Source: Escherichia coli
Lineage (GTDB): Bacteria; Pseudomonadota; Gammaproteobacteria; Enterobacterales; Enterobacteriaceae
Strand: one strand, 5' to 3'
Length of the DNA: 64,000 nucleotides
Assembly (NCBI RefSeq): GCF_022846255.1
Contig: NZ_AP025682.1
The notes under the pieces were generated by a model. It did no database searches. It worked only from the letters and a program-made list of their open reading frames with translations, and was not told where the DNA came from. The position numbers and the translations under genes are program-made. Of the stretch, positions 9,640 to 12,464 are shown piece after piece (positions within the stretch are counted from its first letter, which is position 1; every line of letters starts with the position of its first letter).

Positions 9640-9819
9640 GTTATACATCCGCCGGATCGATACCGTATTCCTGGAGTTTATACATCAATGCACGGCGACT
9701 GATGCCCAGCATTAATGCAGTGCGGGTTCGGTTTCCTTCTTGTTGTTCCAGCACTTCCATAATGATGCGTTTTTCGACGCGTTTAATTTCCTCTTTTAAA
9801 TTACGCTCACCGACAGGGG
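9640..9819 (-). pseudogene. atoC: atoC 3' fragment (Fis-type HTH DNA-binding domain) separated from the rest of atoC by IS4
   Basis: Minus-strand translation gives ...RVEKRIIMEVLEQQEGNRTRTALMLGISRRALMYKLQEYGIDPADV* ending at TAA 9640-9642; the frame entering from the IS4 junction (…GERNLKEEIK) is offset by one nucleotide from this HTH frame. Confidence 0.8.
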
Positions 9820-11245
9820 TAATGCCAGTCAGTTAAGCAACTGACTGGCTCTTTTTCGGGGCTGTGGGGTATTTCCAGGGCCTCTCCTTTACCACTCTCG
9901 GGAAGGCCCTTTCCCTTCTTGTCGGTAATTTCACAAGTTGTCCCATACTTGCAAGATCGCGCATCAGCTCCGGTATACGTCCCGGTGAAGCGCCCTGCAA
10001 TGTCATCAGCATTCTCATCACCATTCCACATGATTCTGAGAAACTCAGTTGATTCGGCCAGTAACCTTTCAGATGTTCCGCCATTTTAATCATCTGATAT
10101 CTCACCAGATTATAAGCCAGTAAGACACCCCACAGCTCTTGCTCCACAAGCTCCGGTTTTTTACTTCTCAGCGTCAGCCTGCTCAGTTGCATCGTCTGTT
10201 TTATCTCCCTGTATCCCAGTTCGATTTCCCAGCGATGACTGTACAGATCCGCCATTTCTCCTCCGGGGAAGCGCATGGCGTCCGTCATCGACGTCAGCAG
10301 ATGGCAGACTTTTCCTTTGCGCGTCACGGTCAGCAGGCGGGCTGTCACTTCATTTCCCAGTCCCGGCCACTTTTTTCGTGCCTGCGGGCTGGTTTTCAGC
10401 TTCACCAGATGATCGCCTTTACCCAGTTTTCTGATCTCTTCATATTGCGCTCCCTTTCTGAGAGGTATCATCCAGTGGCGGTGTTCTCCCGCCAGGCTCC
10501 AGGCATTTAACAGTCCCAGTGAGTAATAACCTTTATCCATTAACGTCAGAGTGTTATCGCCGGTTTGTTCTATAAGTTGCTCAGCAAGCTCATTTTCGCT
10601 GTTCTTCATCGTGCCGAAGGCTGCAGCCGTCAGCAGATGGCTGGTCAGTTCCATCTGGCAGACCATTTTGACCTGCGGGTAGAGCGCCGGGTTCCCGGCA
10701 TGTGTCTGGCGGGGGAAGGCTGCATCGTTCTCTGGTGTATCCGGTGTGCGCCAGAACACACCATCGATGGCCAGCAGGGTCAGGCCGCACCAGTGCGGAT
10801 GCGGCGTGGCGTTATGCCAGAGCTGCGCTGTTTTCGTGAACACGCGGCGGACAGCCTCACTTCCCAGGCGCTGGCGGGCCTGAATAACGGCACTGGGGGC
10901 AACGAAGGGGCGATTGCCCGGCAGCATGATGTCCAGGCGATTCACAATCTGGTGAAGAGGTTCTTTACGCTCAAGCGCCATGCCAACAATACACCAGACC
11001 ATCATTTCGAGGGGAAGACGGCGCTTGCGTAGCGTTACAGTACCTGATTCGGCAAGGCAACGAGAGATGAGTTCGGGGTCGAGGTAATCCCCCAGAGAAG
11101 TCAGTGGGTTACGCAGAGAATCGTAACGGGATACCAGATCAAGAGCCTGTCCAATGTGCATAAAAAAATCCGGAAACAAGTGAGCGTTTCCGGATTCTTA
11201 CACAGCCACTGGATCGGTCAACTGATCCTTAACTGATCGGCATTA
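9820..11245 (-). mobile_element. IS4 insertion sequence, complete, 1426 bp
   Basis: 18-bp imperfect terminal inverted repeats TAATGCCAGTCAGTTAAG (9820-9837) and TAATGCCGATCAGTTAAG (revcomp of 11228-11245); flanked by 12-bp direct repeat CACCGACAGGGG (9808-9819 and 11246-11257); encodes IS4 transposase. Confidence 0.9.
9833..11161 (-). CDS. insG: IS4 transposase (InsG-like, DDE family), 442 aa
   Basis: ORF beginning [16 protein letters not shown]... matches recalled IS4 transposase; longest ORF extends 6 codons further upstream. Confidence 0.85.
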
Positions 11246-12464
11246 CACCGACAGGGGCTGTTTTTGCCTCACCAGCATTACAGACTGGCTGACGAATCTG
11301 CGGCGGAAGATCCTCAGAGAAAATGATCGGGCCTGAGTTCATCACGACGGCGCGTTCAATGACGTTGGAAAGCTCTCGAATATTACCCGGCCATGACCAG
11401 GCGGTAAGCAGCGACATTGCCATCGGATCGATGTCGATAATATCGCGCTGATTCTCACTACTGAATTTTTGCAAAAAGTGATTAGCTAACAGGGAAATAT
11501 CTTCCCGGCGATCGCGCAGAGGCGGCAGTATTAAATGAATAACGTTAAGGCGATAAAAGAGATCTTCACGGAAGGTGCCTTCTTTCACCATTGCCTGCAA
11601 GTCGCGGTTGGTGGCAGCAATGATGCGGATATCAACTTTTATGGTCTGATGACCGCCAATCCGTTCAAATTCCCGTTCCTGCAGAATGCGTAGTAATTTG
11701 GCTTGCAGTACCAGCGGCATTTCGCCAATTTCGTCGAGGAGCAGAGTACCTTCGTTGGCACGTTCAAATAATCCCTGACGTAAGGTTTGTGCACCAGTAA
11801 ATGCGCCTTTTTCATGACCAAACAGTTCACTTTCGAGCAACGATTCCGGCAGCGCCGCGCAGTTGACTTTAATGAACGGCCCCTTTGCCCTCCGCGAATT
11901 GTAGTGAATCGCTCTGGCAATCAACTCTTTCCCGGTGCCGCTTTCACCGCTAATCAAGACGCTGGCCTGAGAAAGGGCAATTTTGGCGGTGTCTTTGCAG
12001 ATGTCCATCATCGCCGGGCTGTTGGTGAGAATGTGCCCCCATTGCCAGCTGGTGCTCAGTGCCTGGTGCAGATGACGGATCTCTTTTTTCATTGACTGGA
12101 GTTGTAAAGCGCGCTGAACGATTAAATTCAACTCATCGAGATCAAACGGTTTGATAACATAGTCGAAGGCTCCGCAGCGTAGTGCTTCGACGGCGGTTTC
12201 CACTTCAGCATAGGCCGTCATCAGAATAACGGGTGTCCGGGTCTCATGGCTGCGCATCTCCTTGAGTGCCTTGATGCCGTCCATCTCTGGCATGCGGATA
12301 TCCATCAACACCACGTCAGGGTGAATATCGGCAAACAGGTGTAATGCTGTGCGCCCGTTGTTCGCACAATGTGTTTCGAATCCTTGTAGTGCAAAAGCGG
12401 TGCTCAGCATACGGCGAACATTATCTTCATCATCCACAATAAGGATGCGATTAATAGCAGTCAT
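11246..12464 (-). pseudogene. atoC: atoC 5' fragment (receiver + sigma-54 AAA+ domains, about 402 codons) truncated by IS4
   Basis: [22 protein letters not shown]... with GESGTGKE Walker A and GAFTGA sigma-54 interaction motif; reading frame runs into IS4 and ends after 5 IS-derived codons (VMPIS*). Confidence 0.85.

Follow-up and report, generated by a model that had tools for sequence, protein, structure and literature searches.

We find that the window (the whole 64-kb stretch of Escherichia coli DNA analysed here) carries a complete IS4 in atoC, and that codons 403–406 of this gene are a rare but recurrent secondary target of the element. The explanation that best covers the observations, and in which we have high confidence, is that a recent IS4 transposition knocked out atoC, at a site to which IS4 returns through its own target preference. 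The features of the locus are listed in Table 1.

Table 1. Features of the interrupted atoC and of the surrounding ato locus, in window coordinates
Feature	Position	Strand	Basis
Complete IS4, 1426 bp	9820..11245	-	100% identity over 1426 bp to annotated IS4 copies
IS4 transposase (InsG-type) ORF, intact, 442 aa + stop	9833..11161	-	NCBIfam and Pfam matches
IS4 inverted repeat, left end (transposase-proximal), TAATGCCGATCAGTTAAG	11228..11245	-	direct reading and script
IS4 inverted repeat, right end (transposase-distal), TAATGCCAGTCAGTTAAG	9820..9837	+	script
Terminator-like site at IS4 distal end (inverted repeat plus 9838-9849): hairpin then T-run, inward-facing	9824-9849	+	
Target-site duplication, copy 1, CACCGACAGGGG	9808..9819	.	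direct reading and script
Target-site duplication, copy 2, CACCGACAGGGG	11246..11257	.	direct reading and script
Truncated atoC ORF: AtoC 1-406 plus IS4-encoded VMPIS, stop inside IS4 inverted repeat	11229..12464	-	
Orphaned atoC 3' fragment: residues 407-461, Fis-type HTH 415-454, stop	9641..9807	-	
Palindrome GCTATGCAGAAATTTGCACAGTGCGCAATTTTCTGCATAGC, intact, just 3' of atoC; presumed AtoC binding site	9590..9630	-	sequence reading
Sigma-54-type promoter element TGGCAC-N5-TTGC, intact, upstream of atoD	9492..9506	-	
atoD (220 aa), atoA (216 aa), atoE (440 aa), atoB (394 aa), all full-length	5599..9445	-	
atoS sensor kinase, intact, 608 aa as called in related loci	12461..14290	-	

The element is the only IS in the 64-kb window. 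Its terminal inverted repeats pair at 16 of 18 positions, and its minus-strand reading frame runs over 442 codons from an ATG at 11161 to a stop at 9833–9835. The encoded protein scores 304.5 bits against the NCBIfam IS4 family transposase profile NF033592 (cutoff 115) and contains the Pfam domains Nterm_IS4 (residues 18–109, 7.6e-33) and DDE_Tnp_1 (126–352, 1.1e-31), i.e. at the level of profile matches, a single ORF for a DDE transposase with the IS4 N-terminal domain. Many complete E. coli genomes contain copies of identical sequence that PGAP annotates as "IS4-like element IS4 family transposase", and the element has the traits of IS4 itself: a length of ~1.4 kb, 18-bp imperfect inverted repeats beginning TAATGCC, and a target duplication of about one helical turn. 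Because the ORF and both ends are intact, and because multiple recent insertions of identical or nearly identical copies exist, this full-length copy is apparently active.

The 12-bp sequence at the two ends of the element has no other occurrence on either strand of the window, and the repeat stops at exactly 12 bp in both directions; a perfect 12-mer would arise by chance at two given positions with a probability of ~6e-8. When 9820–11257 (i.e. the element and one repeat copy) is removed, an uninterrupted ORF of 461 aa is restored, which differs from K-12 AtoC by one amino acid substitution. IS4 belongs to a cut-and-paste family, and duplications of 11–13 bp are reported for it. A staggered cut made by the DDE transposase would have brought the full-length element into atoC and duplicated 12 bp of target. 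For the IS4 family, target duplications of ~10 bp have been described (PMC2266710).

The host gene is clearly atoC. The N-terminal fragment matches the NCBIfam AtoC equivalog NF008469 with 883.5 bits (cutoff 714) over profile positions 1–406 of 461, the reconstituted protein contains a receiver (residues 7–115), Sigma54_activat (145–311), AAA_lid_14 (317–394), and HTH_8 (415–454), and the locus shows atoS-atoC-atoDAEB synteny. The break after residue 406 falls between the AAA+ lid and the Fis-type HTH, which is now separated from the remainder by 1438 bp; atoC in this window is best annotated as a pseudogene disrupted by IS4. The truncated 411-aa protein exists as exact NCBI entries (BDH32766.1, STH81807.1, and STL76347.1), in records labelled E. 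coli. All of this agrees with an earlier note on the same DNA, which had described a 1426-bp IS4 with 18-bp imperfect inverted repeats and a 442-codon ORF, bounded by a perfect 12-bp direct repeat and splitting atoC after the AAA+ domain and before the C-terminal HTH. The insertion is probably recent: no mismatch separates the two duplication copies, other IS4 copies have the same sequence at 100% identity, the transposase gene has kept its full reading frame, and atoDAEB is free of secondary decay, all four of its genes being full-length ORFs.

We found neither atoC-IS4 junction among 5,426 complete RefSeq E. coli genomes, which places the source outside this set. In 3,917 of them the empty site is uninterrupted (best match 99.8%), about a quarter (~1,500) lack the region, and the 19.7-kb flank of the window reaches at most 98.9% identity over its full length to any of the 5,426. 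The missing junctions and this modest identity had suggested Shigella as the source, but the single IS in the window and the E. coli labels of the NCBI records for the fusion protein speak against it. Exact junction scans of GTDB species-representative genomes and of JGI metagenome contigs return 0 matches each, and a literature search for IS4 together with atoC gave no relevant report. By contrast, a collection of ~15 billion proteins contains 10 carrier contigs by cluster look-up (8 + 2) and at least 14 by contig look-up (12 + 2); these counts come from exact-protein look-ups, which are blind to insertions at other sites and do not yield relative frequencies, and contigs that share one haplotype may represent the same strain or sample. 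The exact fusion of AtoC(1–406) to VMPIS is present on at least 12 contigs and in six flanking haplotypes (A–F) that are ~1% apart. A fusion of the opposite orientation, ending in VMPVS, occurs in two runs with a seventh haplotype (G), where the other end of IS4 adjoins the same nucleotide.

IS4 thus recurs at one atoC nucleotide in different haplotypes and in both orientations. It is because of this, and because two of the haplotypes match genomes with an uninterrupted atoC exactly or almost exactly, that we regard the site as a recurrent secondary target, which IS4 has entered independently in several other E. coli lineages. The earlier note had called the insertion a strain-specific event, on the grounds that MG1655 has its single IS4 elsewhere. 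MG1655 does carry an intact atoC and one IS4 at 4502090-4503515. Among the carriers found, this combination of haplotype and insertion is indeed seen only in the source and in two read sets identical to it, but the insertion itself is not restricted to them, as the same nucleotide is occupied in at least six other haplotypes, once in the opposite orientation. Identical alleles that arose independently in unrelated lineages are homoplasies and could mislead the use of IS sites as clonal markers.

We derived the IS4 target pattern de novo from ten other, unrelated IS4 sites. These follow the order A-run/N3/12–14-bp core/N3/T-run, with duplications of 12–14 bp. At atoC, the duplicated core is flanked by AAAAA-N3 on one side and by a degenerate TAATTT on the other, i.e. 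a one-sided match to the arm consensus that scores 9.5 bits, compared with 13–28 bits for the training sites. Under a strict position-weight model of the arms with symmetric 3-nt offsets it ranks 543rd of 187,560, and with a 1-nt offset allowed it moves up to the top 0.1% of positions in the window. A total of 61 other window positions score at least as high, including an unoccupied one at ~9554 in the atoC-atoD spacer. The resident IS4 site of K-12 is comparable (7.9–9.2 bits). In this model, target preference would explain the repeated hits at the atoC nucleotide only partly. We nevertheless infer that preference, and not selection, drives the recurrence, with IS4 probably steered to atoC by a match of secondary quality. 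Classical work on IS4 targets (Mayaux/pheS) reportedly gives the consensus AAA-N20-TTT, which is not relied on here. Target-arm specificity of the IS4 subgroup has already been published (PMC2266710).

The rival reading that survives best, although we consider it unlikely, is that the recurrence reflects positive selection for AtoC loss or remodelling and not target preference alone. In one version, AtoC keeps its receiver and AAA+ domains for another function (e.g. a reported role as ornithine decarboxylase inhibitor, the name that the MG1655 annotation gives to AtoC) while activation of the operon is abolished. Several hits at a mediocre match to the arm consensus are consistent with such selection, and so is the dispensability of the ato system, which is often lost or damaged: in addition to the genomes that lack the region, one (SCU-172) has IS1 in atoS. 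However, the allele is very rare in complete genomes, contigs, and metagenomes alike, the 1–3 samples per haplotype give no sign of sweeps, and if loss of function were selected, insertions should be spread over the gene and not sit at one nucleotide. Furthermore, the resident K-12 site is equally weak. It is also doubtful, if marginally less so, that codons 403–406 form an undescribed intragenic IS4 hotspot with at least four and probably up to seven independent hits in both orientations, where recurrence may exceed what the arm consensus predicts. If true, this would point to a so far unrecognised feature that guides IS4 to its targets, e.g. a core similar to that of the much-used rpoD-mug site (CACCGAAAAGGTG), or alternatively to selection for an HTH-less AtoC that retains receiver and AAA+ functions.

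It is very improbable that all carriers go back to one ancient atoC::IS4, inherited or recombined, with the haplotypes produced by later divergence or recombination. The identical junction and 411-aa product of all same-orientation carriers fit a single event, and a subset such as haplotypes D and E, which have only 2 differences in the adjacent 1219 bp of atoC, could well share one. As the sole explanation, however, a single event is refuted by the opposite orientation at the same nucleotide, which neither descent nor inversion between IS copies yields, because inversion leaves the IS end beside a given flank unchanged. Haplotypes A–F otherwise show 8–20 synonymous differences in the same 1219 bp, beginning 23 nt from the junction (A/B vs C–G), and haplotypes C and G differ from complete genomes with intact atoC at 1 and 0 of 4545 nt, respectively. 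The IS4 copies differ among haplotypes as well: the window copy differs at 2 nt from that of L001, a 5.03-Mb NCTC contig, and L003 differs at 1 nt within the first 197 nt. Finally, with no insertion in 5,426 complete genomes and thousands of empty sites, a single event would require massive precise excision.

AtoC is a sigma-54 enhancer-binding response regulator, and its truncation after residue 406 leaves the receiver, AAA+ domain, and lid, removes the Fis-type HTH, and adds VMPIS. The palindrome just 3' of atoC is presumably the AtoC binding site (AtoC box) of the atoD upstream region. Because AtoC without its HTH should be unable to bind this upstream site, the operon is predicted to be non-inducible, i.e. 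the intact sigma-54 promoter of atoDAEB would no longer respond to acetoacetate. The strain would then be unable to use acetoacetate or short-chain fatty acids for growth via the ato pathway, an Ato-negative phenotype that we predict from sequence. HTH-less enhancer-binding proteins of the NtrC family can sometimes activate from solution when abundant, and by analogy some residual atoDAEB expression is possible. Breakdown of acetoacetate and short-chain fatty acids would be affected, as would the phenotypes that have been attributed to AtoSC (poly-hydroxybutyrate and related ones).

There is a slim chance that the insertion instead switches atoDAEB on, by read-through from IS4 or from an outward promoter. 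The minus strand encodes the transposase as well as atoC and atoDAEB, and on that strand the distal end of IS4 has no intrinsic-terminator-like site, which would be compatible with activation. By contrast, a search of IS4 for an outward promoter or a terminator that would make the insertion activating revealed only an inward promoter-like site and an inward hairpin with T-run; nothing but the inward transposase promoter (11221-11194) resembles a sigma-70 site. To our knowledge, IS4 has no described outward promoter, and orientation is unconstrained, since the opposite one is also found at the same site. Finally, although IS copies are a classic source of misassembly, the placement of IS4 in atoC as an assembly artefact is effectively refuted, because two independent read-set assemblies (DRR322657, L007, and DRR322658, L009) agree with the window at 100% identity over the junction, and also by the perfect duplication exactly at the element ends and by the NCTC contig, which has both junctions and the same duplication.

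Compared with the IS4 of K-12 (insG), the type element of the family, the window copy has the same length, 18-bp imperfect inverted repeats, single 442-aa DDE transposase, and 12-bp duplication. The two are identical at 1421 of 1426 nt (99.65%) and 440 of 442 aa, with 5 nt and 2 amino acid substitutions (A304G and L326R, window versus K-12), and the K-12 copy sits in the yjgZ-nanX interval and not in atoC. Strains other than K-12 commonly carry the window allele, which is 100% identical to the copies in IAI39, SMS-3-5, CE10, and many others. The window copy is also the same element, with 0–2 nt differences, as intergenic copies in IS4-rich E. coli (e.g. rpoD-mug, degS-mdh, and adhE-tdk). Like the atoC site, those terminator-like sites have a 12–14-bp duplication, with the A-run arm 3 nt away from the core; however, they are symmetric (A5-6 N3 core N3 T5-6), lie between convergent genes, and usually have a palindromic core, whereas the atoC site is inside coding sequence, has no hairpin, and offers only one good arm.

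Like other E. coli disruptions of AtoSC-atoDAEB, the lesion affects a dispensable catabolic regulator or operon. Unlike those, it costs AtoC its HTH and nothing else, with atoS, atoDAEB, and the cis elements all intact. The element is known and the disruption of the gene is routine, opening no new biological question, and atoC::IS4 is a clean example of strong target choice by IS4.

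The element that interrupts atoC is IS4 itself, in an allele common outside K-12. The 12-bp direct repeats, 1426-bp element, 18-bp imperfect inverted repeats, and 442-codon ORF described in the earlier note all lie where it had placed them. Within the 64-kb window, CACCGACAGGGG is found on either strand only as these 2 copies, and the duplication is 12 bp without further extension. The element ends, TAATGCCAGTCAGTTAAG and the reverse complement of TAATGCCGATCAGTTAAG, agree at 16 of 18 positions, and a hairpin with a T-run, formed by the distal inverted repeat, faces inward on the plus strand. 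The proposed IS4 identity is upheld by the ORF product, which carries the Pfam domains Nterm_IS4 and DDE_Tnp_1 and scores 304.5 bits against the NCBIfam IS4-family transposase equivalog (cutoff 115), and by full-length 100% identity with elements of many complete E. coli genomes whose annotation reads "IS4-like element IS4 family transposase / insG". The K-12 MG1655 copy (4502090–4503515, yjgZ–nanX interval) is 5 nucleotides and 2 amino acids away, and at least one near-full-length IS4 copy is present in 2,479 of 5,426 complete RefSeq E. coli genomes.

The assignment of the host gene to atoC likewise stands, based on the profile match of the truncated ORF and on its neighbors (atoS on one side, atoD, atoA, atoE, and atoB on the other), all of K-12 length. 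Deleting 9820–11257, i.e. the element plus one repeat copy, restores a contiguous 461-aa ORF that differs from K-12 AtoC by a single residue (A400V). The break falls after residue 406, with the last 5 residues and the stop supplied by the IS4 inverted repeat, and given the domain map exactly the DNA-binding domain is lost, in agreement with the claimed split between the AAA+ domain and the HTH. The atoC–atoD spacer is undamaged. From what is established for enhancer-binding proteins, loss of the HTH would leave AtoC unable to dock upstream of atoD, and atoDAEB is therefore predicted to be non-inducible, although the truncated protein may still activate weakly from solution.

Features of the window around atoC::IS4 and elsewhere
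Feature	Position	Strand	Remarks
Target duplication CACCGACAGGGG	9808–9819 and 11246–11257		direct reading and script
IS4 element	9820–11245		exactly 1426 bp
Transposase ORF	11161 to 9836	minus	442 codons; stop codon 9833–9835
Sigma-70-like site TTGACC-16-AAGAAT	11221–11194	minus	5' of transposase ATG
Truncated atoC ORF	11229–12464	minus	AtoC equivalog profile positions 1–406/461; 883.5 bits, cutoff 714
Reconstituted AtoC (Pfam)	residues 7–115; 145–311; 317–394; 415–454		receiver; sigma-54 interaction; AAA lid; Fis-type HTH
Palindrome GCTATGCAGAAATTTGCACAGTGCGCAATTTTCTGCATAGC	9630–9590		atoC–atoD spacer, intact
Sigma-54 element TGGCAC-N5-TTGC	9506–9492		atoC–atoD spacer, intact
gaataaaaaaggATAAATTAGATGGgggtttataagg	9542–9578		atoC–atoD spacer
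REP/BIME-type copies	17285–17496		2 in tandem, just 3' of rcsC
MicF sRNA	21154–21247	minus	upstream of ompC-like ORF (21581–22696)
tRNA-Pro(GGG)	46114–46190	minus	
L25 (rplY) ribosomal-protein leader	49906–49931	minus	

Neither atoC–IS4 junction occurs in the 5,426 complete genomes, nor did either turn up in scans of the GTDB species representatives or the JGI metagenomes. The uninterrupted site is present in 3,917 of these genomes (best identity 99.8%), while approximately 1,500 have no match to atoS–atoC, so over a quarter of sequenced strains lack the ato regulatory locus. An exact protein look-up places the 411-aa read-through product on at least 12 contigs, including a 5.03-Mb NCTC contig (L001, GCA_900450055.1), a MAG, an ENA metagenome scaffold, and several Logan assemblies. 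In NCBI the protein has the accessions BDH32766.1, STH81807.1, and STL76347.1, all labelled E. coli. The Logan assemblies DRR322657 and DRR322658 match the window at 100% identity and are probably from the source strain. The 19.7-kb flank (11258–31000, atoC-atoS-rcsC-rcsB-rcsD-ompC...) reaches at most 98.9% full-length identity in the complete genomes, with E2348/69 and strain A25 nearest and a best place of at least 99% in only 9 records. Coverage of the source lineage, or of this part of it, is poor in the complete-genome set.

The other carriers do not belong to the window's lineage. Over 1219 bp of junction-adjacent atoC, they differ from the window at 8–19 sites and from one another at up to 20; because the look-up required an identical protein, these differences are all synonymous. 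Across 6 kb they are ~1% apart. Those with IS4 in the same orientation fall into 6 haplotypes (contigs L001–L010): A (window, L007, and L009), B (L001 and L005), C (L002, L003, and L004), D (L006), E (L008), and F (L010), with the nearest difference between A/B and C–G 23 nt from the junction. The product predicted for the reverse orientation, ending in VMPVS instead of VMPIS, exists in 2 runs (SRR18803065 and SRR18803067; haplotype G), where the other IS4 end, TAATGCCAGTCAGTTAAGCAACTGAC, adjoins the same atoC nucleotide. Inversion between IS copies cannot change which end adjoins a given flank, hence G is an independent insertion. Haplotype C differs from the complete genome of MS 21-1 at 1 of 4545 nt and G from Z0117EC0036 at none; because both genomes keep atoC intact, and annotated as such, the C and G insertions are recent and on separate backgrounds. 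The IS4 copies also vary (window vs L001, 2 nt; L003, 1 nt within its first 197 nt). These sequence comparisons conservatively point to at least 4 independent insertions (A, B, C, and G), and probably to 6 or 7. In E. coli SCU-172 (H108, NZ_CP054353.1, 3379040–3382861), of the same haplotype as group C, atoS is split by IS1A, another natural AtoSC knock-out.

Ten other IS4 insertions in GCA_900448835.1 follow the pattern A5-6, N3, a 12–14-bp duplicated core (often palindromic), N3, T5-6, at bidirectional terminator-like sites between genes (e.g. rpoD–mug, degS–mdh, and adhE–tdk). These shared arms explain why BLAST alignments extended 23–28 bp beyond the IS ends into unrelated flanks. That NCTC genome (UGBC01000003.1) holds at least 10 copies, nearly all at intergenic A-run/hairpin/T-run sites, also at eno, ravA–kup, and others; 2 interrupt coding sequences, those of bcsG and a DUF4049 gene. 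The atoC target, GGCAAAAAcag-CCCCTGTCGGTG-agcgTAATTT, has one good arm, one degenerate arm that is offset by 1 nt, and no hairpin. On a half-site weight matrix allowing that offset it scores 9.5 bits, in the top 0.1% of window positions yet well below the training sites (13–28 bits). It is thus a secondary target, in keeping with how rarely the insertion is seen: in none of the 5,426 complete genomes and in a few samples from a very large collection. The resident K-12 site scores similarly (7.9–9.2 bits), therefore weak sites are used in nature; it has a 12-bp duplication, CAGAACCAAGAT, and weak arms (...caaacac / gcctatttcg). In the atoC–atoD spacer, gaataaaaaaggATAAATTAGATGGgggtttataagg scores 16.5 bits, vs 3.2 bits for the occupied site 250 bp away under the same symmetric-offset scoring, yet it is empty in the window and L001.

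The arm model only partly accounts for repeated use of the exact nucleotide. Selection for atoC loss could contribute to the recurrence, but rarity and single-nucleotide precision favor target preference. The earlier note describes and interprets the insertion correctly. One refinement concerns its strain-specific label: this site has been hit repeatedly, in both orientations, and the event is not confined to the history of a single strain. Those hits make a small cautionary case of IS-site homoplasy, not a new phenomenon: the insertion sequence is known and its behavior well known. No paper linking IS4 and atoC was found in the literature searched, and atoC::IS4 alleles are already present in public records.

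Elsewhere in the window, the REP/BIME-type copies (98 nt, 88% alike, spaced 114 nt) both match Rfam naRNA4 (RF02564) at 70–74 bits, and MicF, tRNA-Pro(GGG), and the L25 leader are ordinary landmarks.
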